Assembly: GCA_964645585.1 (NCBI GenBank)
Contig: CAZYAN010000010.1
Location: 3,677 to 67,676, forward strand
Direction of reading: 5' to 3'
Source: an uncultured Opitutales bacterium
GTDB lineage: Bacteria; Verrucomicrobiota; Verrucomicrobiia; Opitutales; T3Sed10-336
DNA: 64,000 bases
Of this stretch, positions 6,820-36,191 are shown in pieces. The position numbers and the translations under genes are program-made. Position 1 is the first letter of the stretch. Every line of letters starts with the position of its first letter. The notes beneath the pieces are model-generated. The model searched no databases and was not told the DNA's origin. It saw only the letters and a program-made list of their open reading frames with translations.

Positions 6820-7557
6820 ATGCCCAATAAAATGCCTCGATGCGATCTGGCGGAAACTCGCAGCTCGCGCGCATTCACCCTGATCGAACTCCTCACCGTT
6901 ATCGCCATTATCGGCATTCTCGCGGCGATCCTTATTCCGGTCGTCGGCGCGGTTCGCGACAGCGCGCGCGCATCGAAGTGCATTTCGAACCTGCGCCAGA
7001 TGAGGAACGGGATCGCTCTTTACGCGAACGACCATAATGGCGTCGCGCCGCCGCCAGCATTCTGGGGAAGCCGACCGGAGAACTTCCCGAGCAACGATCT
7101 CCGAACAACTTTCCATTATAGGATTTGGGAATACGTCGGCTATGAGAATCGCACATTCAGGCGGCCGGACAATACACAGCTCACCGAAAGTCGTACAGAG
7201 AATATATTTCATTGTCCGTCTACTGTTCAGAAACTCACTGTTGTACCCGGCGGAACGGCATCTATAGACGGTTACGCGTATGCGATGAACGAGCAGCCCA
7301 ACGTTATTTATAACAGGGACGTCACCGTCGGCCTGAAGAAAGACCGGCTGACCGCCCCTTCGCGAACCGTGGCCGTTCTGGAGCACTCATCGTGGAAGAC
7401 GACTCCGGCGAAATATTTCGAGAGCGGTCTTATCCCTCACAACGGCGGTGGAAACTTTCTTTTCTACGACGGCCACGTTCAGGCGATAAAATTCGAATCC
7501 GTCCCCAAAAACAGTTATCAGGATGACGGCCTTTATTTCTGGGCGGGCGGGCGTTAG
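6820..7557 (+). CDS. Prepilin-type N-terminal cleavage/methylation domain protein (pseudopilin, H-X9-DG / DUF1559-like)
   Basis: 245 aa. Short basic leader, then [25 protein letters not shown] (N-methylation motif with conserved Glu at +5). C-terminal [13 protein letters not shown] is an exact H-X9-DG motif. Confidence 0.85.
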
Positions 7558-7598
7558 CCATTCCTCTTTCCTTGTCTCCTAACCTATCCAACTACAAC

Positions 7599-20579: not shown

Positions 20580-21905
20580 CTAGCGGATATGCTCGTTCAG
20601 CAAATTTTCGAGCAATTCCTGGCGACCGCTCCCACTCGGCGCCGCCTCTCCCTTTTCGAGGATATACGCTTCGAGTTCGCCAAACGTCGCTTGTCCTTCC
20701 TCGATTCGACGGCCGATCCCGCTGTTCCACGATGAGTAACGATCCCGAACAAAGTCGTCCAGCCTGCCATCCGCGCGAATGGAAGCAGCGATCTTCAACC
20801 CGCGGGCGAACGCGTCCATCCCCCCGATGTGCGCGTAAAAAAGATCGATCGGCTCAAAACTTTCCCGGCGCACCTTCGCGTCAAAATTCAGACCGCCAGT
20901 CGTAAAGCCTCCGAATTTCAGGAGAGCCAGCATCATCCGGGTCGTCATGTAAATATCGGTCGGGAATTGATCGGTGTCCCAACCGATCAGCGTGTCACCG
21001 GTGTTGGCGTCGACCGAACCCAGCGCACCCGCCGCCCCGGCCACTTCCATTTCATGGTAGATTGTGTGCCCGGCGAGCGTCGCGTGATTGGTTTCAAGGT
21101 TCAGTTTAAAATGCTCGAGGAGGTCGTATTCCCGAAGGAAATTCAAGCAGGCTTCGGCATCGGAATCGTACTGATGCGTCGTTGGCTCCATCGGCTTCGG
21201 CTCTATATAAAACTGCCCCGTGAAGCCGATCTCTTTTTTGTACTCGACCGCCATATGCAAAAAACGTCCGAGGTTGTCGCGCTCCCGTTTCAAATCGGTG
21301 TTCAATAGCGTTGAGTAGCCTTCACGGCCGCCCCAAAACGTATATCCCAAACCGCCGAGTTCATGCGTCACCTCCATTGCCTTCTTCACCTGCGCGGCGG
21401 CGAACGCAAAAACGTCCGCATTGCAACTGGTCGCGGCGCCATGGACGTAACGCGGATTCGCAAAGAGCGACGCCGTTCCCCAAAGCAGGTGAATGCCGGT
21501 TCGCTCCTGCTCTTCCTTCAGCACCTTCACGACCTGATCGAGGTTGTCGTTCGTTTCCCGCAAACTCTTACCCTCCGGGGCGACATCACGGTCATGAAAA
21601 CAGTAAAACGGCGCACCGAGTTTTTCGATAAATTCAAACGCGGCGCGCACCCGACGCTGCGCATTCTCGATCGAATCCGATCCGTCATCCCACGGCCGGA
21701 TCGCCGTTCCAGGACCAAACGGATCGGCCAGCGGATTACGGAAGGTGTGCCAGTAAACGACGGAGAACCGCAAGTGGTCCTTCATCGGTTTGCCATCCAC
21801 AATCTCGTCGGGATTGTAATGTTTAAAGGCGAGCGGGTTCTTCGACTCCGGACCCTCAAAAGGTATGCGGCCGCCGACTTCGGGGAATGCGATTTTTTCA
21901 GCCAT
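20580..21905 (-). CDS. xylA: Xylose isomerase
   Basis: 441 aa. Full-length resemblance to class II XylA: [55 protein letters not shown]. Confidence 0.95.
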
Positions 21906-22009: not shown

Positions 22010-24055
22010 TCAATCCACTATCCCGCCTGTCGGCCCGGGACCCGCGTCCGTCATCGTCACCGGCGCGATCCGCCCGTCCGTCTGATAGCTAAGTCTCTCA
22101 ATCGCCACCGACCGCGAACCGCTATACGGTCCAAGCCCAGGCCGATTATTCCACCGGTGATAAAAGATATACCACTCGTCCGTTCCCGGCAGGCGCACGA
22201 TGGAGTGATGCCCTGGCCCCTTGTGGGTCGCGTCGCTGCCGAGAATCTTTCCCCGATACTGCCACGGTCCAGCCGGTGACGAAGCCGTCGCATAATGCAC
22301 CGAATAGGTATGGTCGTGCCAAGAACCATGACTGTACGATAGATAATAAGTCCCGTTCCTGAAATGCATGTAAGCGCCTTCCGTGAAACTCGGCGGCGTC
22401 GCCACCGAAATCTCCCGCGCAAACGAAACCAAGTCGTCATTCAGCTCGAACAACCGAAGCGTCGACCCTGCACTGCCGCCCGCATACAGCCAAACCTTTC
22501 CAGTCGCCGGGTCCTCGAAGACCGCTGCATCAATCGCCTCAAAACCGGGATCTCCCCCGTCCGCCAGCAGCGGTTGCCCGGAATCGACGAACGGCCCGTA
22601 CGGCGCGTCCGCAACCGCGACGCCAATGTGCGACGGCTTAGGACCAACCGAATAATACAGATAAAACCGCCCATCCTTCTCCAACACGCCCGGCGCCCAC
22701 GCGTGCGATGTGCGTCCTTCCCTCTCCGTTTCGATCCAAGGAACATCCGCGAGCCGCAGCACCGGACCGTGCATGCGCCACCGGACGAGATCCTCCGACG
22801 AAAAAACGATAAACCGCTGCGCCCCGCGGGTCGGATACACCCAGAACCGGCCGCCCCACCAGAGCACGTCCGGATCCGCGCCGTCAAAGATCGGATTGCC
22901 TGCCTCGCCCTGCACCCGCGCCGTATCGACGCGCGCGCGAAGAAACGAGGCTTCCCGATCTTTGAGCGCAATCGTACTGACAAGACGAACCCGTCCAGGT
23001 ACCTCGCCGGGGTGTTCGACCGAAAAAGCAACGGCCGCCCAATCGCGCAGGTTGGTCGAGGCTTCCAAGCCCAGATCCTCCCAATCCGCCGGCGGATTGG
23101 TATCGAGCGCGAGCACGACCGGCGTCCCTTCCGCGTCCACTCGCGGAACCAGCCTTGCCTCCACGCGCAAACTATCAGGACGGGTTGCCGGCGAAGCGAG
23201 AAACTCCTCCGGTTGGAGCACCCGGTCGGAAACGCGAACTTCATCGAGCGCCCCCGCAAAATACTGATTCGTCTCCCACCCGTCCGAGGCGGCACCCAGC
23301 CGCCAAGTGCCGCGTTCTCCAGAGCCGCCAGCTCCGTTGTAAAACGCTCCGTCGAGCGCTGCGGATCCCTCCTTTACAAACCCAGAACTGCCCGGTCCTT
23401 GCAGCCAGAGCACCAGCTCCGTCGCGGATCCAGTCGCCACCGCGCTGTACCATTGACCTTCCTCAAGCGGGGCCTGACTTGTGACCGTCCTCGGCGTCCC
23501 TGAGCCATCAACGACCCCGACTTCCAAACGTCCCGATTCTCCGCTCTTGCGGAACCAAATCCAGACCGGATGCAGCGAAAAAATGTTGCCGGTCTTGGAA
23601 AGGAGCACTTGGTCGCCATTTGACGGATACAAAAGAAACGACACCTCCACAGTCCACTCCTCAAGCGGCTGGTCATCGATCGGCTTCGGATCATTCTCCT
23701 CGGGACGATGCCAAGTGAACAGCGATCGCTCGGGTGTAAAACTCGCCGCCAACCGATTTACCTCGCCCGAACCAGGAAGGTAATCAAACGGCGTGTCGGT
23801 CATGTAAGCCGGCGCATGCACCGGAAAAAACGGCCGCAAATGATTTCCGTGCCCGGAATGGTCGATGACCGAATTGAAGGCCGCGCGGATGTCATCGCCC
23901 GCGAGCCCTTCCTCGAAACGCCAGTAGGCGATCGTCTCGCCGGTCCCAGTCCCCGTTCCAATCAATCCCGCAACCAAAGCGATAATCCACGGTGTTCGAA
24001 ACCCGTTTCTAGTCCCCATTTGCGCTACCGACAGCCGCCTTTGTCTGTTGTCCAT
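22010..24055 (-). CDS. Secreted LamG-domain + glycoside hydrolase family 43 protein
   Basis: GH43 motifs ADPDVLWWGGRFWVYPT, HAWAPGVLEKDGRFYLYYS and TEGAYMHFRNGTYYLSYS. N-terminal LamG-like region (IAYWRFEE ... LDEVRVSDRVL). Start set at ATG 24055 (alternative 24019), because the ORF-track start at 24202 overlaps the upstream gene. Confidence 0.8.
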   Translation of the reverse strand: MDNRQRRLSVAQMGTRNGFRTPWIIALVAGLIGTGTGTGETIAYWRFEEGLAGDDIRAAFNSVIDHSGHGNHLRPFFPVHAPAYMTDTPFDYLPGSGEVNRLAASFTPERSLFTWHRPEENDPKPIDDQPLEEWTVEVSFLLYPSNGDQVLLSKTGNIFSLHPVWIWFRKSGESGRLEVGVVDGSGTPRTVTSQAPLEEGQWYSAVATGSATELVLWLQGPGSSGFVKEGSAALDGAFYNGAGGSGERGTWRLGAASDGWETNQYFAGALDEVRVSDRVLQPEEFLASPATRPDSLRVEARLVPRVDAEGTPVVLALDTNPPADWEDLGLEASTNLRDWAAVAFSVEHPGEVPGRVRLVSTIALKDREASFLRARVDTARVQGEAGNPIFDGADPDVLWWGGRFWVYPTRGAQRFIVFSSEDLVRWRMHGPVLRLADVPWIETEREGRTSHAWAPGVLEKDGRFYLYYSVGPKPSHIGVAVADAPYGPFVDSGQPLLADGGDPGFEAIDAAVFEDPATGKVWLYAGGSAGSTLRLFELNDDLVSFAREISVATPPSFTEGAYMHFRNGTYYLSYSHGSWHDHTYSVHYATASSPAGPWQYRGKILGSDATHKGPGHHSIVRLPGTDEWYIFYHRWNNRPGLGPYSGSRSVAIERLSYQTDGRIAPVTMTDAGPGPTGGIVD

Positions 24056-26093
24056 GCCAGTCCGTTTCACCTCTTCCCGCAATCGAACCGAATGAAAGAT
24101 ACACATCATCCTTCCAGCCATCCCGCCAAACCAGTGTGGCCTTGAGCGAGGTTTCGTCCACCGAACGTTCGACCGAAAGCAGCAGAGGTTCATCCCCTCC
24201 AAACGGTGCGAGTAGAGTCACCATAAACCAAGGCGGCCCGTTCCCGACGCGATACACGAGACGAGGCGCCGGATACTTGGACCCGTATTTCGGCGAATAC
24301 CATCCTTCCTCGACAAGTGGCTCCGCCTCGCCACCGAGCGGAATAACCGCGATCTCCGCCGTTCCGTAATCGGTCGCAAACGCGCCCGGAAACTTTGTCA
24401 GCCGCTGCGGCTCCGTTGGCAGAAATCGCCAGTTTTGCTCGATCACCAGCGACTCCCGCATGACCTCCGGCGCTCGCACAAGGTCAGCGACAATCCAGTA
24501 TTCGTCCCGGACCATCAGCAACTGCCGTTCATGTATGATCGACCCGTCCACGCCGTCTGGGAGCAAGTGACTGTATCCATCGTGCCAGGCATGGAGATAC
24601 TTGAGCTCTCCTTCGATTTGCGAGCGCGCGAGCACCGGTTCAACATTCCGCACCATGTTCCCGCCGTTGATCGAAACCGTGTTCTGGAAACGCGTCTGAA
24701 GAAAAGCGTCGCGCCCGCCAGCGTCGTAGGTGTAGCGTCCCGGCGCAACGATCAGCGGCTGTCCGTCCGCATACAGCTCGACCGCGAGCGCGCGGTCGGC
24801 GCCCCGTCCGCGCGGTCCGTAATCCATCATCGACCAATGCGCATCACGACCGTCGGTCCATGGACTTCGCAGCAGCGCGAATTTTCCTTCCGGAAAAATC
24901 CGGCTCGTCCAGGCCGGCGGCGCGCCTTCCTTTCCCTCCGTCGCCAGATACACATGGTCCGGCCGATCCGCCTGTCGCCCCCAGCGCAGCAGACGGTCCT
25001 CCATAAAATCCCGATCCGTGTGGCCGAACTGCGGAATCGTCAGATTCGGCTGAGTAAACGCCGCCGCGAAATCAAACATGCCGTTCAAGCGCTCCACAAA
25101 CTCCTCCGCAACCGGCGCCCCCGCCCGCTTCATGAGCTGGTAAAACCAATTCTCCTCCCGCAAGGTCACGTTGTGATAGGTGGGGCTTCGGCCGCGATAA
25201 ACACCGTCGGCGTACGTGGATTCAAAGATGTGGTTTCGCATCGTTTCCACCGTCACGCGAGCCCATTCGCCCGCATCTCGAAACTCCGGAAAATACGTCG
25301 CCGCCTGCAAGACACTGACCGCCGCCATGGCACCCTGATTGCTGTCGCCGTATCCAGCTGAACCGCGCGCGTTCAGCCACTCGCAAGTCGCGTGCATGGT
25401 ATCCAAAAAAACCGTCAGAACCTGCTCGTCAAAATGGCGCGATGTAACCGCCACCGGAAAAAGCCACGTCCAGTGCCGCATCCGAATGCCGGCTTCGAGA
25501 CGCCGCGGATAGCCAGGCGCCACCTGCTGATCCCATTCCAGAAACCGTTCGGCGAACTCCGCCATGTAACGTTCGTCACCAAACCGTCGATACGCCTCCA
25601 CCAGCGTCAGAAAATACGTGTGGCGGTTGAGCATAAAATTCCACTCACGGTCGTGGAGCTGATGTTTCCAGTCGACTCTGTCGCCAAACTCGACCGTCTC
25701 TCCAAGAAAGGTCAGCCGACGGGCCAACGCATCGGCCGGAGTCGTCGTATCATGCACCCCGACGGGCATGCAGCGGACACTCGGCACCTTCATCGGATCA
25801 TGGAGGTCGGCATCGATTCCGGGCAGGTCGCGAATCGCCGTCGACGGGTCGAAATGATAGTCCATCTCACGCGTCCGATAATACTGGAGCAGTTGCGTGA
25901 TTGCCGCCCTTTCGTCCCCCGCCGCAACCGCCTGACGGACCTTTTCCAAACCGGGCCGGTCGAGGTCGATTCGCGCAAGCACGGCAGCGGCCCGCTCCGG
26001 GTTAGCCGGCGCTCCTTCCGCCACCGCAGCTGCCCCAGCGATCAACGCGATCGACCAAGAAGCCCAGCCGATGAGTTTTGCCATTTCCCTCAT
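24009..26093 (-). CDS. Secreted heparinase II/III-like (alginate-lyase-fold N-domain + Hepar_II_III C-domain) protein
   Basis: Signal peptide MREMAKLIGWASWSIALIAGAAAVAEG from ATG 26093. Helix-rich N-terminal half. The C-terminal half carries HWSMMDYGPRG..LAVELYADGQPLIVAPGRYTY...FQNTVSINGGN, which resembles the Hepar_II_III signature. Confidence 0.6.
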   Translation of the reverse strand: MREMAKLIGWASWSIALIAGAAAVAEGAPANPERAAAVLARIDLDRPGLEKVRQAVAAGDERAAITQLLQYYRTREMDYHFDPSTAIRDLPGIDADLHDPMKVPSVRCMPVGVHDTTTPADALARRLTFLGETVEFGDRVDWKHQLHDREWNFMLNRHTYFLTLVEAYRRFGDERYMAEFAERFLEWDQQVAPGYPRRLEAGIRMRHWTWLFPVAVTSRHFDEQVLTVFLDTMHATCEWLNARGSAGYGDSNQGAMAAVSVLQAATYFPEFRDAGEWARVTVETMRNHIFESTYADGVYRGRSPTYHNVTLREENWFYQLMKRAGAPVAEEFVERLNGMFDFAAAFTQPNLTIPQFGHTDRDFMEDRLLRWGRQADRPDHVYLATEGKEGAPPAWTSRIFPEGKFALLRSPWTDGRDAHWSMMDYGPRGRGADRALAVELYADGQPLIVAPGRYTYDAGGRDAFLQTRFQNTVSINGGNMVRNVEPVLARSQIEGELKYLHAWHDGYSHLLPDGVDGSIIHERQLLMVRDEYWIVADLVRAPEVMRESLVIEQNWRFLPTEPQRLTKFPGAFATDYGTAEIAVIPLGGEAEPLVEEGWYSPKYGSKYPAPRLVYRVGNGPPWFMVTLLAPFGGDEPLLLSVERSVDETSLKATLVWRDGWKDDVYLSFGSIAGRGETDWHGQQTKAAVGSANGD

Positions 26094-26259
26094 GGGTCTA
26101 TCCTTTCCTGCACTTCCTCGGGCAATCGGACAACGTGCCGCCGCGAGGTATACGCAAACGGCACGTTCCATGCCTTGGCGGAAGGCGGCGCGCACGCGGC
26201 CGACTTCACGAAATCCGGCCTGGCTGCGCGCACCCACGCGGATGCAGTTCTCTTTCCCA

Positions 26260-29200
26260 TCACTCGATGCTTAAACGAAAGAACTGCCGGCTGACCTCCG
26301 TTGTGTCCACGGAATATGGGCTCGCCGCCCCGTCGACAACCGTCCACGGGCCCGTGACTTCAGGCGCGCTTTCAAGAATCGCTTCGGCACCTTCCCAATT
26401 GAGAATAACTCCGGCACCGTCCCGGGAGATCGCAAGGACCGGAAGAACCGCGGACTCGAAGATCTCGCTGTCGATCCAGGTTCCTCCCCAGAGTTCCCCT
26501 AAAAATCCGTTGCCGGATGAAAAGTCTGTCGCGACCGCCCCGCCGCCTTCATTAAATCCAAATCGCAGGTGCAGCCCGTCAGCAGGATTCAGCAGATCGT
26601 GCAGCGGCTCGAACATCGACTCGCTGATCTCCTGCTGGGTTTTCGCGACGTGCCATATCTGGAACTCATCGACAGCGCCGCGGAAGAATTGCGCTCCCAG
26701 CTGCGCCCACGGGTACGGATCAGCGCCAATAAACGACCGGCGCATCACCACGATCTCCGTCGTCGGCACAGTCAGAGACGACTTGAGTTCCCCGTTGAGG
26801 TACAGCAGAAGCTGATCGGCGTCTCGAACGAGGGCGATGTGAACCCATTCGCCGTATTCAAAATCCGAGGTCGAAACCGTATGAAGATCGCCACCTGAAA
26901 CGACGCGAATTCCAGCGGTGATGATGCCGTCGAGCTCGCGCATCTCGATCGTCCGGGTAAGCGACTCCTGATTGGTCATTCGGAAAAGCACCTGCTGCTC
27001 TTCCTGATCCAGTATCTTGTACCAGGCCGAGATGGTAAAATCGCCGAACGTTCCCCCGGCATGGCTAAAACTCACAAAGTCGTCAATCCCGTCGAATTCG
27101 AGCGCGAAGAACCGCTGGAGATTTCCAGGGAGAACACTGAAGCTCCATGCGACACTGTACGGCCCGCTTCCTTCCGAATCAAAATACTCGACCCGAGCAC
27201 GGTTGATTCCCGCCGGAAGATTGCCAGGCGTAAAATAAATGGTGGCGCCGTTTCCAGTCGCCGCCGTGATCGCCGAAACCTCGTCCTCATTGACGAACAG
27301 GCGCAGACTCAAAACGTCGAGCGCCACCGTGCCGTTCACAACCTCGGCCTCAATCGTCACGTTCCGATCCACGTTGCCTGAGTGATGAACTGGTGTGGTG
27401 GAGACCACCGTCGGCAGCGTTTCATCCACCGGAATAAACATAAAGAAATTGATCTGAATATCATTATTAAAATTGTTGGCGCTCACCGCGCGAAGCCGGA
27501 CAGTCTCTTCGCCGGAAAGCGCGACCCTGACCTCCTGATCGAGTCCGTCCGGGCCGGTCAGCCGTGTGAATTGGTAAACGCCGTTCCCTTCAGGACGGAA
27601 TTCGCCAAGGACCTCCGTTTGCTGATTGGGCTGGGTGGGATCGCTTGTGACGCGTTCAAGGAGAATCACCGGAGCTCCGGTTGCGGCCGCCCGCAGAAAC
27701 ACTTGATACTGTCCCTCCGGGAAATTCCGGGTGTAATTAAACCACTCACCGGTTTCTACCAGGTGCAGGTCGTAATCCGGAATCGTGACGCCGGCATTCA
27801 GGCTGGCTTCGTCATATTTCGGGCGAGGCGGCAGATCTCCGCTGAAAAATGTCCCGACAACATCGCACCAGCGATACATATTGGTTTCCAGCGTCGCTTT
27901 CGTCTCCGACTTGCTGAAAAAGTCAACACCGGGCTCGCCGACACGGTCGACATAGCCGGTCGCCTGATTGAAGTAGCTGCCGTTCGTGAAAGTCGAAGGA
28001 GTCGGTCGGTCAATATAGGATCCTCCGCCCGGCGTCCCCGATACAGCGCCAGAGTCACCATCGCACAGCATACCGGCCGCGAAGTTGTAATCTTCCGCCT
28101 CGATGACGACGACCGCGTCTTCGTTCAAGGTATCGAACGACCAATGATGCGTCGTCTGGCGCTCGTTATCGCGAGCGATGACCGTCACCGCGTAAAACTC
28201 GTTCGGTTCGAGCCCGTCGAAAAAGACTTCATACGCGGGCGACGAACCGGTGATGGTCAAACTTTGATGAGAAATAAGCTCTCCGTTCAGGTACAGTTCG
28301 ATGTCCTCCGTCGAAAGCGTATTGGGTTCTTCGGTACTTACCTGGAAGCGCAAACCATCCTCGGCAGGATAAAAGAAGGCGTCGTGCAGCGGGGTCAGGT
28401 TCGCAATCACCGGACCGCTCTCGGTCACAAACGCGTCGACTTCAACGAAGCGCGGCTGGCGGAGCAGCATCGCCCCTTCTTCCGTGAATTCACCGAGGTT
28501 GTCAAAACCGCGGGAAATAAACTTCAAGTAGCGAAAATCGCTGACGGCGCCGGCCGGAAACACGAGTCGGACGAGGTTATAGTTCCCCGTTCCGGTTCCG
28601 GTATCCGTCGCCGGTATGCCAGGAACCGGAGCGCCGGTGTAGGTCAACGGCGTCGCAAAACGCGATCCTTCGATCACCGTAAAATGAATTCCGTCGGTCG
28701 ACACGGCGAACTCGCCATCGTATCCGGTTCGCCACGGATCAGCGCCGGTTATCCAAATGTCAATACGGTCGAGGGAGCGGTGCTGTGCATTGTTCGGGTC
28801 GCCCAAATCCCAGACAATTTCGACGATCTCGTTGTCCGGCCCCGGGATGACATTCGTCGCGGGCGCCGTCGCACTCGATGCATCCGTCAGCGCCACAAGC
28901 GATCCCTCCACCGGAGCAAAGTTACCGCTGCCGATGATGCCATGAAGCGCATCGTCAGACGACATGTTCAATTCCACGTCATCGAGCGTGCCGGCCGCCA
29001 AGCTCCCGTCGAAGGTGTCGAACGTCCAGGCCACTTCCCCGCTCGTCGCGTTGTCGCTGGCGACCACGCGCACTTTGTACAGCCGATTCGATTGCAAGCC
29101 GCCATAAGAAACCTGATACGAGGGGGACGCGCCCGCAACTGTCAACTCTTCCGGCGGCACGAGAACGCCGTCGATGTACACTTCAATATCCTCGGCCGCG

Positions 29201-30033
29201 AGCGTGCGCGATTCATCGGTGCTGACCGTCAGCGACAATCCGGCCGCGGCTGGATGCCTGTGTGTACCGGGCGGCGGTGTGATATCGTCGAAAGAAAGAT
29301 AGTGCGGCAGCGGAGCGGTGTCCGGGTAAGGCAAGGGTTCTGTCGATACCCCGAACGCGTGATAATCGAGCTCGAGCAGGTGGGACGCATGCGCCGTCCG
29401 GTTCCTGTAACCGAAGTAGGTGCCGGTCAGCGGCGCCGTGTCGACGGCCGTTGCCGCGGTACCGACCGGGCTCCCCGAAGCGTCAAAAACGCGAAACTCC
29501 AAGCTGAGCGTGGCGCCGTCATACGTTCCCGTGAGCCGAAGTTCATACGTTTCCCCTGGTTCCGGAACGCCGGCGTTCCCATTCACCGCGGCAAACCCTC
29601 CGCCCGCGCCGCCAAGCGAAAGAATTCTGACATTGCCGGCGCCAGAGCCGCGCACGGTCCAGTCCGCCAGATAATACGTGCCGCTGAACGCGCTGTTGTT
29701 CGCAAAAGCGCCGAACCCGGCGGTGATCGCCGTTCCGCTCCCTTGCACGTCGACGACCGTCATCCAGCTCGAGATCACGAAAGAATTTCCAGAGACTCCC
29801 GTCACTTCTGTCGCTGTTCGGGCGACGACGACACCAGACCCGGACGGCTGTCTCAGTTCGAGAATTTTCCGGGAGTCATTCCACGTCCACGGACCTGCCT
29901 GCTCCGGAAACGCGCCGTCGGAAAAATCGGTTGTGAACGGAAAGGCATTTTGGGCGCGAAGAAACGCGGCGGTCGACAACTGGACCGCGAACAGCACAAG
30001 AATAAGGAGTCGAGCGGTACTTGCGTATATCAT
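26260..30033 (-). CDS. Giant secreted non-catalytic multi-lectin protein (jelly-roll, 3 Ig-like repeats, discoidin-like, CBM-like, LamG, C-terminal FFRL beta-sandwich)
   Basis: ATG 30033 gives the signal peptide MIYASTARLLILVLFAVQLSTAAFLRAQ (the ORF track uses TTG 30066). Internal Ig-like repeats share ~45% identity. An IEAEDYNF...GEWFNYT..GQYQVFLRAAA segment looks CBM6/35-like. The LamG signature is FDGIDDFVSF..FTISAWYK..LYLNGEL..VDEFQIWHVA. The C-terminus reads GPWTVV..SPYSV..RQFFRLSIE. Confidence 0.8.
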   Translation of the reverse strand: MIYASTARLLILVLFAVQLSTAAFLRAQNAFPFTTDFSDGAFPEQAGPWTWNDSRKILELRQPSGSGVVVARTATEVTGVSGNSFVISSWMTVVDVQGSGTAITAGFGAFANNSAFSGTYYLADWTVRGSGAGNVRILSLGGAGGGFAAVNGNAGVPEPGETYELRLTGTYDGATLSLEFRVFDASGSPVGTAATAVDTAPLTGTYFGYRNRTAHASHLLELDYHAFGVSTEPLPYPDTAPLPHYLSFDDITPPPGTHRHPAAAGLSLTVSTDESRTLAAEDIEVYIDGVLVPPEELTVAGASPSYQVSYGGLQSNRLYKVRVVASDNATSGEVAWTFDTFDGSLAAGTLDDVELNMSSDDALHGIIGSGNFAPVEGSLVALTDASSATAPATNVIPGPDNEIVEIVWDLGDPNNAQHRSLDRIDIWITGADPWRTGYDGEFAVSTDGIHFTVIEGSRFATPLTYTGAPVPGIPATDTGTGTGNYNLVRLVFPAGAVSDFRYLKFISRGFDNLGEFTEEGAMLLRQPRFVEVDAFVTESGPVIANLTPLHDAFFYPAEDGLRFQVSTEEPNTLSTEDIELYLNGELISHQSLTITGSSPAYEVFFDGLEPNEFYAVTVIARDNERQTTHHWSFDTLNEDAVVVIEAEDYNFAAGMLCDGDSGAVSGTPGGGSYIDRPTPSTFTNGSYFNQATGYVDRVGEPGVDFFSKSETKATLETNMYRWCDVVGTFFSGDLPPRPKYDEASLNAGVTIPDYDLHLVETGEWFNYTRNFPEGQYQVFLRAAATGAPVILLERVTSDPTQPNQQTEVLGEFRPEGNGVYQFTRLTGPDGLDQEVRVALSGEETVRLRAVSANNFNNDIQINFFMFIPVDETLPTVVSTTPVHHSGNVDRNVTIEAEVVNGTVALDVLSLRLFVNEDEVSAITAATGNGATIYFTPGNLPAGINRARVEYFDSEGSGPYSVAWSFSVLPGNLQRFFALEFDGIDDFVSFSHAGGTFGDFTISAWYKILDQEEQQVLFRMTNQESLTRTIEMRELDGIITAGIRVVSGGDLHTVSTSDFEYGEWVHIALVRDADQLLLYLNGELKSSLTVPTTEIVVMRRSFIGADPYPWAQLGAQFFRGAVDEFQIWHVAKTQQEISESMFEPLHDLLNPADGLHLRFGFNEGGGAVATDFSSGNGFLGELWGGTWIDSEIFESAVLPVLAISRDGAGVILNWEGAEAILESAPEVTGPWTVVDGAASPYSVDTTEVSRQFFRLSIE

Positions 30034-30093
30034 GGTTTTTGGAGGGTTCTGATTGGAGAGAAACAACCCGCGGACGCGAAACGAAGAAGGGCG

Positions 30094-30783
30094 CTATCTT
30101 CGCCCGCCCTGCGAGGGCATCGGAAAGGGGTTTTTGAAATACCAGGTGTTGCTGCCGACGCTGTAACCGCCCGGATCAAACTCCGCGGCCGGCACCCACT
30201 CGACACTGCCGTCGGAGCGGAGGTGGTTAGCGCCGGCAACGGACCCGGAGCCGTCGCCATGACTGGCGTTCAGCCCGCGCGAGGGATGATCGCTGACGAG
30301 GTCGACCATCAACAGATCGTATTCGAGCGGATCATTCAACGCGCTGAACGGCAGAGAACTCGTGGTCTGCCCCGGCCAGTACGCATAGCCGAATACGATG
30401 GAACCGCCTTCGGAAGTGCGGTTTGCCTCCGTCATGTGCGTCACCATCCAGTCGTTGTTGGCCGGACAGAAAAACATGGCCCAATCGACGTCGTAGCCGA
30501 GCAGATCGTCGCGCTGGATGGCAGAGAGCCAATGAGGGTATGGCGGATTGCTGCCCATGCTGTCCATGTAGCGGCCGCCGTTGTCGTCCCGATAAAGATT
30601 GTGCGCATAGCCCCACTGACGCAGGTGTGTCGCGCACGATGCTCGTTTTGCCTGCTCGCGCACGCGACTGACAACGGGAATGAGGATTGCGGCGAGGATG
30701 CCGATGATGGCGATGACGGTAAGCAGTTCAATCAGGGTGAACGCGCGGCGGCAGACGTGCAGGGTAGCAGATTTCTCATTCAT
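30094..30783 (-). CDS. Prepilin-type N-terminal cleavage/methylation domain protein (pseudopilin, DUF1559-like)
   Basis: 229 aa. [38 protein letters not shown]; the first 25 mature residues are identical to the paralog at 6820. The C-terminal GANHLRSDGSVEW is a degenerate version of the H-X9-DG region. Confidence 0.85.
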   Translation of the reverse strand: MNEKSATLHVCRRAFTLIELLTVIAIIGILAAILIPVVSRVREQAKRASCATHLRQWGYAHNLYRDDNGGRYMDSMGSNPPYPHWLSAIQRDDLLGYDVDWAMFFCPANNDWMVTHMTEANRTSEGGSIVFGYAYWPGQTTSSLPFSALNDPLEYDLLMVDLVSDHPSRGLNASHGDGSGSVAGANHLRSDGSVEWVPAAEFDPGGYSVGSNTWYFKNPFPMPSQGGRR

Positions 30784-30800
30784 GACGGGGCGGGTAATAT

Positions 30801-30812
30801 TAAAAATTTCAG
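30801..30812 (-). promoter_or_regulatory. Third copy of the CTGAAATTTTTA core, upstream of the pseudopilin operon
   Basis: The minus strand reads CTGAAATTTTTAATATTACCCGCCCCGTC-ATG. The 12-mer is identical to the core at 32714-32725. It is AT-rich within a GC-rich context. Confidence 0.4.
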
Positions 30813-30861: not shown

Positions 30862-31806
30862 TCAGATCTCGACAGCGCGCTTCACCAACCTGCTCCCGCC
30901 CCACCGGAAGGCGAAGAGGTCGAGCCCCTCCCGCAGGAACTGAACCTCCCGCAGGCCGGCTGGGTCGAGCGATCGCGTCGGATGACGGACGCGGGCGCTT
31001 GCGATGATGCCCGCGTCGTGAAGGTTGTTTTTCATGACCGAGACGCCAAGCCCCGGTTGAAGTTCGTAGCGGATTAAAGGCAGCGCACGGGTAAATTCCC
31101 GATAAGCTTCTTTCCTTTCGCCAGCTTGGTGATGGTTCCAGATTTTAAGGAAGATGTCGACCAGGTCGCTGCCCGGCATCGTTCCCACCGCACCGCGATC
31201 GAGTTCCTCCGGAAAGAACTGACCGTTCAACCCGCCGAAAAGGATCAGCGAATCGCCGGCGGCGGCCCGGACGGAGGTGACCTTCATGGCTGTCGGGGGC
31301 GCTTCGACCTTGGCCAGAACGACGTTCTCCAGTTCCTGCGCCATCCGCGCCAAGAGCGCCGGCGGCATGCTGATCTGAGTCATCAGCGGCGCGTCCTGAA
31401 TCATAATCGGAATCCGGACCGCCTCCGAGATCGCCCGGTAATACGCAAAGATGCCTTCGGCGTCCGGCTTCATATAGTGCGGTGGCAAAACCATCAGCGC
31501 ATCTGCGCCCGCCGCCTCCGCCTCCACGCTCAAAGCAACAGCAATGTCCGTTCCCGTATGGCCGGTGCTGACGATGACCGGAACGCGGCCCTCCACCTCC
31601 TCAAGGATGACTCGTGTCAGCTCCGCGCGCTCCTGGGCCGACAGCGCATAGCCCTCGCTCGCGTTTCCGAAAAGCCCGAGCCCGTGCACACCCGCATCGA
31701 GTAAAAAGCGCACAAGCCTCCGCTGGCTGTCAAAATCAACCGCACCGTCGTCCCGGAACGGCGTATTGACAATGGGAAAAACCCCGCGGAAACGAGTCTC
31801 GATCAT
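30862..31806 (-). CDS. Dihydrodipicolinate synthase-family (class I) aldolase/dehydratase, probably acting on a 2-keto-3-deoxy sugar acid
   Basis: 314 aa. DHDPS-family N-terminus (FPIVNTPF..DG.VD...LVRFLLDAGVHGLGLFGNASEGYALS..ER) and a candidate Schiff-base Lys in VVLAKVEAP. ATGA overlap with the upstream GntR gene. Confidence 0.8.
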   Translation of the reverse strand: MIETRFRGVFPIVNTPFRDDGAVDFDSQRRLVRFLLDAGVHGLGLFGNASEGYALSAQERAELTRVILEEVEGRVPVIVSTGHTGTDIAVALSVEAEAAGADALMVLPPHYMKPDAEGIFAYYRAISEAVRIPIMIQDAPLMTQISMPPALLARMAQELENVVLAKVEAPPTAMKVTSVRAAAGDSLILFGGLNGQFFPEELDRGAVGTMPGSDLVDIFLKIWNHHQAGERKEAYREFTRALPLIRYELQPGLGVSVMKNNLHDAGIIASARVRHPTRSLDPAGLREVQFLREGLDLFAFRWGGSRLVKRAVEI

Positions 31807-32540
31807 ATCCCTGCCTTTACCTCCATGGCGGCCGCCTCCGCGCTCGCCGGATCATGCGTGCTGGTGCCCGTCCGCTCCAGGTCGCGAATCAGCGAGTCGG
31901 CCGCTCGTTCGATATGCGTCCGCAGGAGCCGCACAAGGCGGGCCGCATCCCGTCGCTTCAGGGCCTTAAAAATTTCGTTATGCTCGGCGCGCTCCTGCTC
32001 GATCCGCTGTTCCCAGCCTTCACGGCTGTAATGAACCCGGGCGATTTGAATATGAGCATTCAGGCTGTTGTACATGTCCATCAGCCTGCGATTCCCGGCG
32101 ATCCGGACGATTTGCTTGTGAAACTCATGGTTGCGCTCCTCGTGCAGTTTGCGTTCCCGGTCGGTCCTGACCGTCGTGTTCAAAGCCTGGACCAGTTTTT
32201 CCAGATCCGCGAGTTCTCCCTCCTCAATGCGCTCGACACACAATTCGGCGGCCAGACATTCGAGAGCCACGCGCAATTCAAAGGTTTCCGCCAAGTCCCG
32301 GGACGATATTTCGGTCACATACGTCCCGCTTCGCGGATTGATCGCCACAAGCCCTTCGATCGCCAGGCGGTTGATCGCATCCTTGACCGGAGTCAGACTG
32401 ACACCGAGCGTCGCCGCCAGCTCCTTCACATGGAGCCGCTCTCCCGGCTGAAACTGTTGGGACAATATACACTCGCGCAAGGTCTGGTAAACGGAGTCAC
32501 TCGCGCGCTCGCGCTTTAACGCTGTGAGAAGGGGTTTCAT
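31803..32540 (-). CDS. GntR-family transcriptional regulator (FadR/FCD subfamily)
   Basis: 245 aa. Winged-HTH VYQTLRECILSQQFQPGERLHVKELAATLGVSLTPVKDAINRLAIEGLV, followed by an all-helical FCD-like C-domain. Confidence 0.9.
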   Translation of the reverse strand: MKPLLTALKRERASDSVYQTLRECILSQQFQPGERLHVKELAATLGVSLTPVKDAINRLAIEGLVAINPRSGTYVTEISSRDLAETFELRVALECLAAELCVERIEEGELADLEKLVQALNTTVRTDRERKLHEERNHEFHKQIVRIAGNRRLMDMYNSLNAHIQIARVHYSREGWEQRIEQERAEHNEIFKALKRRDAARLVRLLRTHIERAADSLIRDLERTGTSTHDPASAEAAAMEVKAGI

Positions 32541-32813: not shown

Positions 32814-33578
32814 ATGAACCGTTTACAGGGCAAGGCAGCCGTCATCACCGGCGCGGCCGGCGGCATCGGCGCGGCCGCTGTCCGGCTCTTCGCCAGCGAG
32901 GGAGCAAACGTGCTCGCAACCGACATTGACGAAACCGCTCTGCGCGAAATCGCGGCGGCAAGCCCCGATTCGCGCGTCGAAACTGTCGCCGCGGATGTTT
33001 CCGTTGAATCCGATGTTGCCCGCGCCGTCGAAGCGGCTGTCTCGCGACTCGGCGGAATCGATATTCTGCTTCATGCCGCCGGGATTGCTTCGTTCACGCG
33101 CACCGAGGAGTGCAGCCTCGAAGAATGGGACCGCGTCCACGCCGTCAATACACGCGGCGCTTTCCTCTTCGCCCGCGCCGTCATTCCGCACATGCGATCC
33201 CGCGGCGGCGGATCCATCGTTTTCGTCTCCTCGATCAACGGAGTGATCGGCGCTCCCGGCCTCGCCGCCTACAGCGCCTCGAAGGGCGCCGTTCTTGCCC
33301 TCGCGCGAACATTGGCGATCGAGCTGGCGCCGGACCTCATCCGTGTCAACAGCCTCTGTCCGGCTTCCGTGGATACATCCATGCTCCAGCTCGCCTTCAA
33401 ACGCGCCCCCGATCCGGCCGCGGCACGGGAGGCGAACATCAAGCGCCACCCGCTCGGGCGTCTCGCCACCCCGGACGAAATCGCCGCGTTCGCCCTGTTT
33501 CTCGCGTCTGACGAAGCCGGCTTCGTCACCGGGGGCACCCACTTTATCGATGGCGGCGCCCACCTCGCCCGCCGGTAG
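32814..33578 (+). CDS. Short-chain dehydrogenase/reductase (SDR)
   Basis: 254 aa. TGAAGGIGAA cofactor motif and catalytic YSASKGAV (Y-x-x-x-K). Confidence 0.9.
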   Translation: MNRLQGKAAVITGAAGGIGAAAVRLFASEGANVLATDIDETALREIAAASPDSRVETVAADVSVESDVARAVEAAVSRLGGIDILLHAAGIASFTRTEECSLEEWDRVHAVNTRGAFLFARAVIPHMRSRGGGSIVFVSSINGVIGAPGLAAYSASKGAVLALARTLAIELAPDLIRVNSLCPASVDTSMLQLAFKRAPDPAAAREANIKRHPLGRLATPDEIAAFALFLASDEAGFVTGGTHFIDGGAHLARR

Positions 33579-33610
33579 TCGCAACTTTCCCGCACAATCG
33601 CCTGATAACG

Positions 33611-34669
33611 ATGTCAATTCCTGCCCCGCCCAATATCCAAACACGCGAGCTGATCGAACGAGTCGCGGCTGTGACCATGCGCTGGCCGTTCCGGATGTGG
33701 GCGTTTGGCGAAGCCGTTGCGCTCCGCGGCCTGCTCGCGGCGTCCGCGGCAACAGGAAATCCGGAATGGCGCGGTTTTGTCTATGCGCTCCTTCGCACTT
33801 ACGCGGGACGCGGCGCCGGCAAATCACCCGACGAACATGTCGCGCCGGGCGCGGAATTGCTCATCGCCTACCAGAATACGGGCGAGGAGATTTTTCTCCA
33901 GGCAGCGCGTTCCCTCGCGGAACTCCATGCCTCATTCCCCCAAAACCGGCATGGCGCGCGCATGCACCGCCCGGATCTTGCCGGCTGGCGCCGTCAAATC
34001 TGGGTTGACTGCATCGATGCCGAGGCCCCGTTCCTCGCACGCCTCGGAGCCGTTACGGGAGAAAACCGTTATTTTCATCAGGCGGCCGATGAGCTGCTCG
34101 CCTATGCACGACTCCTCCAGGACCGCGACACCGGCCTTTTTTATCATGGACACGAAGAGGCGTGCGGAATCAACGGCCAGCTTTGGGCTCGCGGAAACGG
34201 ATGGGCGCTGATGGGGCTGACCGAAACGCTCGCCTTCCTTCCGCATGATTTCCCCGCTCGCCCCGAGCTGACGGCGATCCTTCAGCGTCTATGTATTGGT
34301 TTATTAAATACGCAAGATCCGAACGGACTGTGGCACACCCTTCTTCTCGATCCGGACAGCCCGCTCGAGTCGACGCTCGCCGCCATGGTCGCGTTCGCCC
34401 TCCGTTTTGCATCCGATCAAAAGCTTTTTGATACGGCTGACTTCAAGAAAATGACCGAAAGCGCGCGGGCCGCGGTGCTGTCACAGATCGACGAATCGGG
34501 GACGCTTCAACTCGTCACGGACGCCACGCCAGTCGCGTCGATCGCCATGTACCGCACCCGTCCCTTCGGCGTCTTTCCGTGGGGACAGGGTCCTTTGCTG
34601 CTCCTCCTCTGCCGCGAAATGGAGGCCGAACGGTCGCCATCGCTTTCCAACCCTCGAACAACAGCATGA
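33611..34669 (+). CDS. GH105-like unsaturated uronyl hydrolase (unsaturated rhamnogalacturonyl/glucuronyl hydrolase family)
   Basis: 352 aa. The LWARGNGWALMGL motif is typical of YteR/GH105. (alpha/alpha)6-like helical repeats. Confidence 0.7.
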   Translation: MSIPAPPNIQTRELIERVAAVTMRWPFRMWAFGEAVALRGLLAASAATGNPEWRGFVYALLRTYAGRGAGKSPDEHVAPGAELLIAYQNTGEEIFLQAARSLAELHASFPQNRHGARMHRPDLAGWRRQIWVDCIDAEAPFLARLGAVTGENRYFHQAADELLAYARLLQDRDTGLFYHGHEEACGINGQLWARGNGWALMGLTETLAFLPHDFPARPELTAILQRLCIGLLNTQDPNGLWHTLLLDPDSPLESTLAAMVAFALRFASDQKLFDTADFKKMTESARAAVLSQIDESGTLQLVTDATPVASIAMYRTRPFGVFPWGQGPLLLLLCREMEAERSPSLSNPRTTA

Positions 34670-35880
34670 AAATCACCGAAGTAGCCACCTTCGCCGTCCA
34701 GGCGGAACGTCTCGATACGCGCCCCTACTGGGGCAGCCGCGCCTGGGCGAACCGCGACGATTCCCGCGAACGCCGCGTGGAGCTGTCAAGCGAGTACCCG
34801 CCTGTCCAGCGGCGGCGCCCGGTCTATTCCAGCACCATCGACACCGTGCTCGTCCGGATTGACACCGATGAAGGAATCACGGGATGGGGAGAAGCGAAGG
34901 CGCCGGTAGCCCCCCAGGCAACCAAACAGATCATCGATCTGCTGCTGCGCGATCTCCTGATCGGGAAAGATCCGCGCGACGTTCTGGTGCTATGGGAAAC
35001 CATGTTTGCCGGGATGCGCGTCCGCGGCCATCGCGCCGGATTTTACCTGGAGGCAATTGCCGGCGTCGACATCGCTCTGTGGGATATCCGGGGACAAGCG
35101 GCCGCGATGCCGATCTGTCAGCTCCTCGGCGGCAGTTTCCGACCGGCGGTCCAAGTCTACGCCTCCGGCATTCCCGCGCTCGACGTCAACGCGTCCGCGG
35201 AACAGCTCCACGCGCTGGCCGAAGAAGCCCGCGCGCTGCGTGAACGCGGTTTCAAAGGCGTAAAAATGGCGCTCGGCCAAGGAATCGAAGGTGATATTCG
35301 TTCCGTGCGGGCGGTTCGCGAAGGCGTCGGCGACGACTTCATTATTCATGCGGACGCGGCGGGGGTCTACGATCGCGCGCAGGCCTTGCGGCTCGGCCGG
35401 GCGCTGGAAGAGTTGAAAGTCGGTTTTTTCGAACTGCCCATCCCCGCCGAAGACATGGAAGGATACCGCTTGCTCGCCCAGGCCCTCGACCTGCCGATCG
35501 CCAGCGATACGCTGATGAACCGTTACGAAGCGGCCGAATACCTGCGGGCCGGCGGGCTCGGAATCGTGCAACCGGATGTTTGCCGCGCTGGCGGCATCAC
35601 CGAATGCCGGCGCATCGCCGAAGTCGCCGATATTCTCGGGGCTGCCTATTCGCCCCACCTCAGCATCGGTTCCGCGGTTCAATTCGCCGCCAGCGCGCAC
35701 CTCGCCTGCGCAATGCCCAACACCCTTACCTGCGAGTATTGGATCGGCGACAATCCGCTCGGCGATGTGCTGTTGGAAAAACCGCTTCGTCTCGAGGACG
35801 GATATTTATACGCGCCGGACGAACCCGGATTGGGCATCACCTTCAAGAAAGAGGCTCTTGCCAGCATCGGCGTCCACTAG
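34666..35880 (+). CDS. Enolase-superfamily enzyme (mandelate racemase / sugar-acid dehydratase subgroup)
   Basis: ATG 34666 overlaps the GH105 stop (ATGA). MKITEV.. capping domain. The barrel carries IIHADAAG, FFELPIP and IVQPDVCRAGGITE, which look like metal-ligand and active-site segments. Confidence 0.85.
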   Translation: MKITEVATFAVQAERLDTRPYWGSRAWANRDDSRERRVELSSEYPPVQRRRPVYSSTIDTVLVRIDTDEGITGWGEAKAPVAPQATKQIIDLLLRDLLIGKDPRDVLVLWETMFAGMRVRGHRAGFYLEAIAGVDIALWDIRGQAAAMPICQLLGGSFRPAVQVYASGIPALDVNASAEQLHALAEEARALRERGFKGVKMALGQGIEGDIRSVRAVREGVGDDFIIHADAAGVYDRAQALRLGRALEELKVGFFELPIPAEDMEGYRLLAQALDLPIASDTLMNRYEAAEYLRAGGLGIVQPDVCRAGGITECRRIAEVADILGAAYSPHLSIGSAVQFAASAHLACAMPNTLTCEYWIGDNPLGDVLLEKPLRLEDGYLYAPDEPGLGITFKKEALASIGVH

Positions 35881-36191
35881 GTGCCTCCGTCGCGAGCATG
35901 CCTGTCACATCCAAGCTCATTGCAAAACCCGTCATCGGCGAGGTGCCGGTGCCACATTCAACCCGAACAGTCCGTGGAGATTCCTGAGAGCCCCGGCACC
36001 GCGCCTCCTTTCAAAACAACGCCCGGTCAGGCGGATCCTGTCTCTGCCGACCTCAGCGCGACAAAGCCACATGTCTGGCTCATGCGCGGCGAGAGGCCGA
36101 TTGACTCGGCACGCGCAAATGTTGGCGTCGCCGACGCGGCGCGCGGCATCGTCCATAATTTCAAGGAGCTGATTGCGAACCAGCGTTCATT

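Follow-up and report, generated by a model that had tools for sequence, protein, structure and literature searches.

A pseudopilin gene conserved upstream of a giant multi-lectin gene in a polysaccharide-degradation locus of an uncultured Opitutales bacterium

The 64-kb stretch of DNA analysed here (the window), which originates from an uncultured Opitutales bacterium, carries two adjacent genes on its minus strand. The first one (30783..30094) encodes a 229-aa protein of prepilin type, pseudopilin-2, and the second one (30033..26260), located downstream of the pilin gene after a spacer of exactly 60 nt, encodes giant-2, a 1257-aa signal-peptide protein. The initial annotation of this DNA had delimited both genes and their spacer in the same way. 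Comparison with related loci indicates that the two genes form a genuine conserved module and that the subfamily of pilins to which pseudopilin-2 belongs is preferentially coupled to giant secreted adhesin-like or lectin-like proteins. This association is limited to the subfamily, as the pilin family taken as a whole is not tied to giants.

The pair was found again in another organism, on the contig L103, where P0128 (1278 aa, 45% identity), a homologue of giant-2 detected by HMMER, is encoded immediately downstream of a pilin that has remained 59% identical to pseudopilin-2 while the giants shuffled their modules. The N-terminal lectin-fold module occurs twice in P0128 (residues 114-598 and 681-982), which lacks colinearity with giant-2. 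The locus of the window itself is also present in two Logan assemblies, with an identical giant (100%), a pilin that is 97% identical and an unchanged gene order. Among ten distinct contexts of the pilin subfamily, picked on the size of the surrounding contig, there are seven in which the gene that directly follows the pilin codes for a protein of 860 aa or more with a signal peptide, the two genes lying on the same strand with the pilin first and the gaps ranging from 54 to 263 nt where both gene calls are clean. In the same loci, genes of at least 800 aa amount to only 8 of 64 (12.5%; binomial p = 4e-5). The seven giants display at least four unrelated architectures (LamG-type, Sde182_NH plus LamG, PATR, and no Pfam match): one of 1257 aa carries LamG, one of 860 aa carries Sde182_NH and LamG and is followed by a 1280-aa BNR/CBM96 protein, three of 1134, 1517 and 1199 aa carry PATR, one of 935 aa has no Pfam match, and the last one has 1278 aa. 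For this particular pilin, the proposal that the adjacency is non-accidental is therefore upheld by both the conserved pair on L103 and the excess over the local background.

Pseudopilin-2 (30094..30783, minus strand) is a divergent member of the DUF1559/H-X9-DG class of type-IV-pilin-like proteins found in the Planctomycetes-Verrucomicrobia-Chlamydiae (PVC) bacteria. Its class III leader, MNEKSATLHVCRR, is followed by the cleavage site and the mature end, with a glutamate at position +5 (motif RR-A|FTLIE). It exceeds the cutoffs of both N_methyl (PF07963; E 2e-6, 27.6 bits for a cutoff of 21.2) and TIGR02532 (30 bits for a cutoff of 16.3), and the prepilin cleavage/methylation motif is followed by a hydrophobic helix. 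In an alignment with 29 relatives, F15, E19, C50 and C106 are invariant and a motif N..DGSV is found; the segment GANHLRSDGSVEW of pseudopilin-2 aligns on the family block GGN.L..DGSV.W, in which N186, G192 and V194 are nearly invariant. The conserved histidine lies about 15 residues before DG, compared with 9 in H-X9-DG, and the protein matches neither TIGR04294 nor PF07596 (DUF1559) at E<0.01. The label of DUF1559-type protein given in the initial annotation thus applies only by way of the homologues and their alignment, many of the full-length ones carrying PF07596, as pseudopilin-2 itself remains under the thresholds of both models. Altogether, 4795 relatives were retrieved, and the full-length homologues, many of which are annotated as DUF1559, belong to an Opitutales subfamily and are 35-59% identical. 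The best protein matches assign the source of the window to Opitutales/Opitutaceae within Verrucomicrobiota. A scan of representative genomes with pseudopilin-2 alone retrieved no relative, and a metagenome scan with a subfamily-specific C-terminal alignment yielded six loci, i.e. four true relatives on contigs shorter than 2 kb and two weak partial matches.

The AlphaFold2 model of pseudopilin-2 built from the alignment with the 29 relatives (predicted local distance difference test, pLDDT, of 86) has the lollipop fold of pilins, with a long alpha-1 helix (residues 17-67) followed by a beta-rich head. Its top PDB match according to Foldseek is the pilin FimA, although this match is weak (E 0.18, template modelling score 0.40), and no solved structure covering the head domain was found by searching PDB. 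Pseudopilin-2 falls well below the cutoff of TIGR01710, which describes the major pseudopilin GspG/PulG of type II secretion systems (T2SS; 34.8 bits vs 88.85), and matches this model over residues 13-69 only.

Giant-2 (26260..30033, minus strand), as translated from its ATG, appears on present evidence to be a secreted multi-lectin protein with a carbohydrate-binding module (CBM) and without catalytic domain. Its only Pfam match over cutoff is Laminin_G_3, and no NCBIfam model matches it at E<0.01. Behind the signal peptide, residues 28-237 (29323..29952) are predicted by AlphaFold2 to form a concanavalin A (ConA)-like lectin-fold beta-sandwich (block-mean pLDDT mostly 75-94), whose Foldseek matches include legume lectins (E 5e-6), ERGIC-53, GH16 glucanases and the lectin module of PilC from Streptococcus sanguinis (7oa8, E 1e-4). 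A GH16-like catalytic reading of this domain was rejected, as its sequence lacks the ExDxxE motif and its fold matches are dominated by lectins. Two repeats related to immunoglobulin (Ig) or fn3 domains (42% identity, E 7e-28) follow at residues 247-342 (29008..29295), modelled as a confident beta-sandwich, and at residues 541-640 (28114..28413), which have weak fn3 matches. They flank a beta-rich module (residues 346-540, 28414..28998; pLDDT mostly <50) that is conserved in three homologues (P0128, P0130 and P0147). Residues 641-868 (27430..28113) constitute an IEAEDY module resembling CBM6/35, with a weak match of the segment to CBM_6 (E 0.069), and residues 869-972 (27118..27429) a Big_5-type bacterial Ig-like module (Big_5 at 870-937, E 1.4e-4, 23.0 bits for a cutoff of 23.6). 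Residues 535-967, which span Ig, IEAEDY and Big_5, are a widespread unit shared by more than 100 representatives; homologues of this unit carry LamG and match CBM_6 or CBM_35_2 at 1e-5 to 2e-4, and Big_5 matches among the homologues of giant-2 reach 5e-11. The protein ends with the Laminin_G_3 module of the ConA-like lectin/glucanase superfamily (residues 982-1137, 26623..27090; Pfam 5.3e-24), related to a protein with an S-layer domain (PDB 4qvs, 3e-9), and with a C-terminal domain that is conserved in homologues and ends in RQFFRLSIE (residues about 1190-1257, 26263..26466).

Most modules listed in the initial annotation were recovered, i.e. the jelly-roll (by AlphaFold2 and Foldseek), the three Ig-like repeats, LamG, the FFRL end and, by way of homologues, the EAEDY module, but the module called discoidin-like, which corresponds to residues 346-540, has no Pfam match even at E<10. 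Giant-2 thus contains recognised carbohydrate-binding folds (LamG, the N-terminal lectin fold and the CBM6-like module through its homologues). Likewise, the claim that it lacks any recognisable catalytic domain agrees with searches of Pfam, NCBIfam and PDB sequences and with the fold search of residues 28-345, whereas residues 346-540 have no family assignment and only a low-confidence model, so that a cryptic function within this module is conceivable. Ten homologues of the modules of giant-2 exhibit LamG, Big_5, CBM6-like or Ig domains in Pfam and no catalytic domain. A word-index search giving seven matches had suggested that giant-2 was an orphan; this view was dropped, as the full HMMER search found 5476 domain-level relatives in addition to the homologue with 45% identity.

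The pairing does not extend to the whole pilin family. Representative genomes were scanned with the pilin alignment, giving 80 loci, mostly from PVC bacteria, in which genes were called with a simple open reading frame (ORF) caller. The downstream same-strand neighbour has at least 800 aa in 3 of 32 cases, for a background of 7.8% (p = 0.46), and the neighbours span 81 Pfam families, cytoplasmic enzymes among them. The general claim that DUF1559 pseudopilins precede LamG/CBM proteins of more than 1000 aa consequently fails the adjacency test proposed with it in the initial annotation. Across this broad sample, the only tendency seen is that the downstream products begin somewhat more often with a signal-peptide-like N-terminus (20 of 32 vs 39%; Fisher p = 0.008).

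The window contains only two prepilin motifs, each encoded directly upstream of a gene for a large secreted protein. The other pilin, pseudopilin-1 (6820..7557, plus strand, 245 aa), is a canonical DUF1559 and H-X9-DG protein: it carries N_methyl, passes TIGR04294 (1.5e-6) and is above the cutoff of PF07596, also named SBP_bac_10 (2e-6; 28.5 bits vs 23.3). It is followed by the gene of giant-1 (7599..11152, plus strand), a secreted protein of about 1183 aa with a YWTD/LDL-receptor-B beta-propeller region and the C-terminus NLIEYA...RRFLRV. This gene is frameshifted near 8195-8210, the reading frame being split at a CCCCGG run (8190-8215), and only a 969-aa piece (P0277) is likewise called in a Logan assembly; the gene may truly be a pseudogene, or both assemblies may carry the same sequencing error. 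Once repaired (1183 aa), giant-1 is colinear with the intact 1171-aa P0278 (62% identity, 100% coverage). A gene for a PL8-type, chondroitinase ABC-like lyase (1974..6248, plus strand; Lyase_N, Lyase_catalyt and Lyase_8), whose product ends in ...SSRFFRL, lies upstream of pseudopilin-1. The initial annotation had presented the pair of pseudopilin-2 and giant-2 as the second copy of a cassette located at 6820-11152. A pilin followed by a large secreted-protein gene is indeed present there, but giant-1 is frameshifted and has no homology with giant-2 (BLASTP E>0.3), and the likeness of the two pilins is limited to their 58 N-terminal residues. A duplicated cassette was therefore rejected, and the sequences of the two pairs point to a recurring architecture.

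The C-terminal domain of giant-2 belongs to an unannotated domain of about 60-100 aa that ends in R(R/Q)F(F/L)R(L/V) and is often preceded by DxDGxxNLxEYAxGxxP. No match to it was found in Pfam or NCBIfam, even at permissive E-values in Pfam. It caps four large secreted proteins of the window, namely giant-2 (26263-26466), giant-1 (10850-11152), the PL8 lyase (about 6100-6248) and a GSDH-like protein (about 20300-20523). The C-terminus of giant-2 is 51% identical to that of P0006, and the same ending is found in P0128, P0129 and P0131. An FxRL ending was observed in 61 of 149 representative homologues of giant-2, compared with 11 of the 479 genes coding for 300 aa or more in the broad sample of loci. 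Most giants encoded next to subfamily pilins are capped by this domain, as is a polysaccharide deacetylase (L005, L086, L089, L097 and L003). This domain could serve as a signal for sorting or anchoring. Components of PEP-CTERM/exosortase systems (PEP_exosort_dom, EpsH/EpsI, PATR with PEP-CTERM) are also encoded beside subfamily or related pilins (L003 4021-4662, L098 2346-4258 and L041 10635-12953), which hints at a link of these pilins to another surface-protein sorting system.

An analogous pilin is induced by substrate in another species of Opitutales, the isolate Verruconatronum alginivorum (2026, PMC13274419). The first 372 genes of its gene table, which gives signal-peptide classes and protein abundances, were used. 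The gene of its pseudopilin pgaptmp_000050 opens an operon that is induced by alginate and includes a PL29 lyase, and the pilin is the most abundant of the alginate-induced proteins of this operon. It accounts for 0.513% of the proteome in alginate-grown cells and for 0 when mannose or sucrose is supplied (log2 fold change of 19), and exceeds the neighbouring lyases and the canonical GspG (0.064%) in abundance (PMC13274419). Genes for a canonical T2SS and for a prepilin peptidase are present in this species and are expressed, and its authors propose a possible role of the T2SS in lyase export, nothing further being suggested; TonB-type systems are also reported (PMC13274419). Like the locus of the window, that of pgaptmp_000050 encodes, besides a pilin, a lyase with heparinase II/III domain, an SDR and a divergently oriented Na+/solute symporter of the SSF family (PMC13274419). 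Unlike pseudopilin-2, pgaptmp_000050 is followed by a 298-aa secreted protein and then by the PL29 lyase, no giant lectin being present, and the regulator of the lyase locus is of LacI type, whereas that of the window is of GntR/FCD type.

The 372 genes include 14 DUF1559-like genes labelled PILIN, all within islands rich in carbohydrate-active enzyme (CAZyme) genes (PMC13274419). As in the subfamily of pseudopilin-2, many of these paralogues adjoin large secreted proteins: 12 have a downstream gene on the same strand, whose product carries an SP, LIPO or TAT signal in 9 cases and has at least 800 aa in 5 (1239, 1258, 1113, 986 and 971 aa), a proportion higher than the 12.8% found region-wide (p = 0.012). 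A cassette recurs at pgaptmp_000010-000015, 000020-000022 and 000306-000308 (Table S3, PMC13274419), in which a secreted hypothetical protein of 810-942 aa is followed by a PILIN of 231-263 aa and then by a protein of 687-1258 aa. Three of four such third proteins are annotated as sialidase-family or exo-alpha-sialidase and one as hypothetical; the protein encoded downstream of a V. alginivorum pilin can therefore be a putative enzyme and not a lectin. A gene for an FAD-dependent oxidoreductase of about 555-565 aa is located just 3' of giant-1 (11367-13031) as well as directly 3' of a V. alginivorum pilin (pgaptmp_000151); such an enzyme could be another component that recurs in these loci. 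No discussion of a pairing between pilins and giants was found in the part of the V. alginivorum paper covered (PMC13274419). More generally, a search of the literature on DUF1559, H-X9-DG, Verru_Chthon and pseudopilins of Verrucomicrobia and Planctomycetes yielded no functional study, only that paper and brief mentions, and nothing in it describes pilins of one subfamily that are paired with exchangeable genes for giant lectins or adhesins.

In the window, the genes of pseudopilin-2 and giant-2 are part of a run of seven minus-strand genes. The first gene encodes a GntR/FCD transcription regulator (31803..32540; Pfam GntR 7.8e-21, FCD 8.2e-25), which probably regulates the cluster, and overlaps by 4 nt a gene for a 314-aa aldolase/dehydratase of the DHDPS family (30862..31806; Pfam DHDPS 5e-43), a protein that scores under all NCBIfam equivalog cutoffs and is assigned to family level. 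After 78 nt and 60 nt, respectively, come pseudopilin-2 and giant-2, and then, with intergenic distances of 22-166 nt, a heparinase II/III-like polysaccharide lyase (24009..26237; Hepar_II_III_N 1.6e-44, Hepar_II_III_C 6e-18), a protein that combines LamG with a GH43 glycoside hydrolase (22010..24202; Glyco_hydro_43 4.8e-47, Laminin_G_3 1.7e-10) and a xylose isomerase (20580..21905; TIGR02630, 700 bits for a cutoff of 533). The start of the heparinase-like gene is perhaps at about 26093, since the gene called in the near-identical locus L002 encodes 694 aa. Genes for catabolism and uptake are divergently oriented (32814..37940, plus strand) and encode, according to Pfam, an SDR, a GH88, an MR_MLE dehydratase-type protein and a Na+/solute symporter. 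The flanking genes are those named in the initial annotation. A Pfam scan of the main predicted ORFs of the window also bears out that it encodes neither GspD/E/F nor PilB/C/Q and neither SusC/SusD nor a TonB-dependent receptor; the SusC/SusD pair that characterises Sus-like polysaccharide utilization loci is thus lacking among these ORFs.

Two weak sites made of a GC hairpin and a T-rich tail occur around the spacer of pseudopilin-2 and giant-2 (30034..30093) on the minus strand, the first one at the stop codon of the pilin gene (30105..30089) and the second one inside the spacer (30080..30067). They could mediate read-through attenuation giving more pilin than giant, or could have arisen by chance. 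No promoter-like site was found in this spacer, and scans for Rfam families and tRNA detected nothing within or close to the pair. A plus-strand open frame of 1231 aa (27382-31077) is antisense to both genes; as the homology and the domain matches all fall on the minus strand, it is read as a by-product of a G+C content of about 60%. Elsewhere in the window, a 726-aa ORF (48206-50386) harbors two LacI helix-turn-helix and two Peripla_BP_3 stretches, and would be either a tandem LacI-LacI fusion or two merged regulator genes, and a 974-aa ORF (56618-59542) has no Pfam match and is not located beside any pilin gene.

Taken together, the following scheme is tentatively favoured, although it is judged to be a little short of an even chance: a pseudopilin specific to the locus would couple a machinery of T2SS or type IV pilus (T4P) type to the export or display of the glycan-binding protein encoded with it. 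The conserved two-gene module of pseudopilin-2 and giant-2, probably co-transcribed, would belong to a substrate-responsive locus degrading a uronate-containing polysaccharide. Once synthesized, pseudopilin-2 would be cleaved by a prepilin peptidase and then recruited by a T2SS or T4P-like machine whose genes lie elsewhere. Giant-2 would be exported by the Sec pathway and act as a glycan-binding scaffold made of two ConA/LamG folds, a CBM6-like module, Ig spacers and the conserved C-terminal domain. The substrate-induced pseudopilin, possibly by interacting with giant-2, would adapt the shared machine so that the giant, and possibly the neighbouring lyases, cross the outer membrane or are displayed there, and the lectin modules would bind the polymer and present it to the lyases and hydrolases encoded there. 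A wider proposal, that the Opitutales subfamily of DUF1559-type pilins forms substrate-induced pseudopili or short fibres displaying or exporting interchangeable giants, many of which end in FFRL or RRFLRL, is doubtful. If true, it would represent a previously unrecognised pilin-dependent route of surface display, a first function for part of DUF1559 and a Verrucomicrobial counterpart of Sus-type capture.

Several points weigh against the favoured scheme. Since the window has no T2SS or T4P genes, the presence of the machinery is assumed from relatives. Position -1 of the leader of pseudopilin-2 is an alanine where the canonical residue is a glycine, these two residues alternating there across the family. 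In three of the ten subfamily contexts, the gene downstream of the pilin encodes something other than a giant, i.e. an ABC solute-binding protein and permease (with a 1513-aa PATR protein just upstream), an SSF symporter or a small DUF5069 protein, and the PATR contexts are perhaps not independent because they are possibly orthologous. The broad sample shows no enrichment in giants, and the 5 of 12 found in V. alginivorum do not exceed the density of giants of about 40% estimated by a hand count in one of its islands (14 of 32 genes). The proteomes of that species are, by its authors' own statement, single replicates per condition (PMC13274419). The model of residues 346-540 of giant-2 is of low confidence, and two weak hairpin/T-tail sites occur around the spacer, such sites being only modestly more numerous in the region than in shuffled sequences (24 vs 15.4±3.9).

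The adjacency and conservation data would equally suit the version proposed in the initial annotation, according to which a pseudopilus or pilus, with the pilin as its subunit or at its tip, carries the giant lectin as a physically attached component that captures substrates in PVC loci in place of SusC/D. Lectins at pilus tips have a precedent in the minor pilin PilC of S. sanguinis (7oa8), whose lectin module is similar in fold to the N-terminal domain of giant-2; a fibre subunit would be in keeping with the abundance that the V. alginivorum pilin reaches upon induction, and the scanned ORFs of the window include neither SusC/D nor a TonB receptor. However, giant-2 has an ordinary Sec signal peptide, without pilin-like N-terminus or recognisable pilus-docking element, and the pattern is not general across PVC bacteria. 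In addition, SusC is a transporter, so that a lectin would be unable to replace it for uptake, and TonB-type systems are reported beside pilins in V. alginivorum. Such an anchored lectin is hence considered improbable. The same abundance on alginate, typical of binding proteins, would also fit a pilin that is not a fibre subunit but an abundant oligosaccharide binder or sensor, anchored in the inner membrane and exposed to the periplasm, which serves the transporter of the locus, its adjacency to the giant merely reflecting the shared locus. The Pfam name of DUF1559, SBP_bac_10, and one genome paper that calls these proteins solute-binding proteins (PMC4807772) point in this direction, as does the location of pilins beside a transporter in three contexts (the ABC solute-binding protein and permease of L005, the SSF symporter of L101 and the divergent SSF symporter of V. 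alginivorum) and the SSF symporter of the divergent operon of the window. Nevertheless, the model of pseudopilin-2 is a pilin-type lollipop and not a two-lobed binding protein, its leader has the full prepilin-peptidase motif with Glu+5, and a giant and not a transporter is encoded downstream in 7 of 10 subfamily contexts, which makes this explanation unlikely.

It might also be that the two genes have no direct functional link: as pilin-like genes (tens per genome) and genes of giants crowd the CAZyme islands of Opitutales, they would be chance neighbours kept by synteny. The absence of enrichment in the broad sample, the 81 Pfam families of its neighbours, the proportion in V. alginivorum, which matches the density of giants in its island, the lack of relationship between the two giants of the window and the possible orthology of several PATR contexts all agree with this view. 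By contrast, it accounts poorly for the excess over the local background in the subfamily, for the retention of the pair at 59% and 45% identity despite a rearranged order of giant domains, for the constant orientation and short gaps across four unrelated architectures, and for the identical pattern of both window pilins; mere crowding therefore seems rather unlikely. Lastly, giant-2 could be an additional depolymerase that acts independently of the pilin, its catalytic module being hidden in residues 346-540, which have neither family assignment nor confident model, or in the ConA-like fold, which is common to GH16 glucanases (1u0a and 1mac are among the Foldseek matches); the sialidase-family annotations of several proteins encoded downstream of V. 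alginivorum pilins are compatible with an enzyme. As the best fold matches are lectins, the N-terminal domain lacks ExDxxE, no catalytic match was detected along giant-2 in Pfam, NCBIfam or PDB, and the ten homologues of its modules show binding or Ig modules only, this possibility is very remote.

Few paralogue families of Planctomycetota and Verrucomicrobiota are as large as that of the DUF1559/H-X9-DG proteins, with 67 paralogues per genome in V. alginivorum and 68 in Planctopirus limnophila, and two genes of this type are essential in Planctopirus. The pilin family was already known, and one previous report describes a pseudopilin within an induced lyase operon (PMC13274419). The present data correct the idea of a general rule linking pilins to giants, which does not hold, the family showing only a modest tendency to precede secreted proteins. 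A subfamily that precedes genes of giant lectins or adhesins, together with an induced locus pilin, nonetheless provides a concrete and testable handle on both DUF1559 and glycan capture in Verrucomicrobiota. This phylum has a major part in the breakdown of complex glycans in the sea, in soil and in the gut and, to our knowledge, lacks the Sus paradigm.

Like the DUF1559/H-X9-DG family of Planctomycetota, Verrucomicrobiota and Lentisphaerota (PF07596, TIGR04294), pseudopilin-2 has a class III leader, a hydrophobic helix, a pair of cysteines and a C-terminal N..DG[SH]V motif, but it lies below the thresholds of both models and has a longer spacing between histidine and DG; its subfamily, a narrower group of Opitutales, shows a preference for a giant as the next gene product that the family as a whole does not share. 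The Verru_Chthon cassette of Verrucomicrobiota, which comprises three pilin-like proteins B-D (TIGR02596, TIGR02598 and TIGR02599) and a large protein A (TIGR02600), also associates prepilin-type proteins with a very large one, whereas the pair of the window includes one pilin gene and not three. This cassette had been raised as a possible precedent, but membership was rejected: pseudopilin-2 scores far under the cutoffs of TIGR02596 (23.1 bits vs 70) and TIGR02599 (18 bits vs 256), through its N-terminal helix only, and neither giant-2 nor either part of giant-1 has any NCBIfam match at E<0.01, that to the large protein A included.

Tip adhesins of type IV pili offer another parallel. PilY1 and PilC of Pseudomonas and Neisseria are encoded in operons of minor pilins, next to assembly genes; a C-terminal beta-propeller is characteristic of PilY1, and PilC of S. 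sanguinis is a lectin fused to the pilin itself. As in these systems, the pair of the window associates a small pilin gene with a large adhesin or lectin (about 1000 aa or more) and a ConA-like fold with a pilus-related system, but its lectin protein has a Sec signal, its pilin gene is single and no assembly genes are located nearby. In Bacteroidota, SusD and the surface glycan-binding proteins of SusE/F type are non-catalytic lipoproteins made of tandem Ig-like or CBM-like sandwiches and partnered with the TonB-dependent transporter SusC. Giant-2 likewise combines Ig-like and CBM-like sandwiches, is encoded beside enzymes in a polysaccharide locus and presumably captures substrate, whereas it carries a type I signal peptide, its C-terminal domain is unrelated to theirs and no TonB-dependent partner was found in the window. 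Finally, Caldicellulosiruptor, a Gram-positive bacterium, carries a complete T4P assembly locus and tapirins next to its glucan-degradation locus. Tapirins are unrelated to giant-2 in sequence and architecture, but there too, as in the window, pilin genes and genes of non-catalytic polysaccharide binders are found side by side with CAZyme genes.

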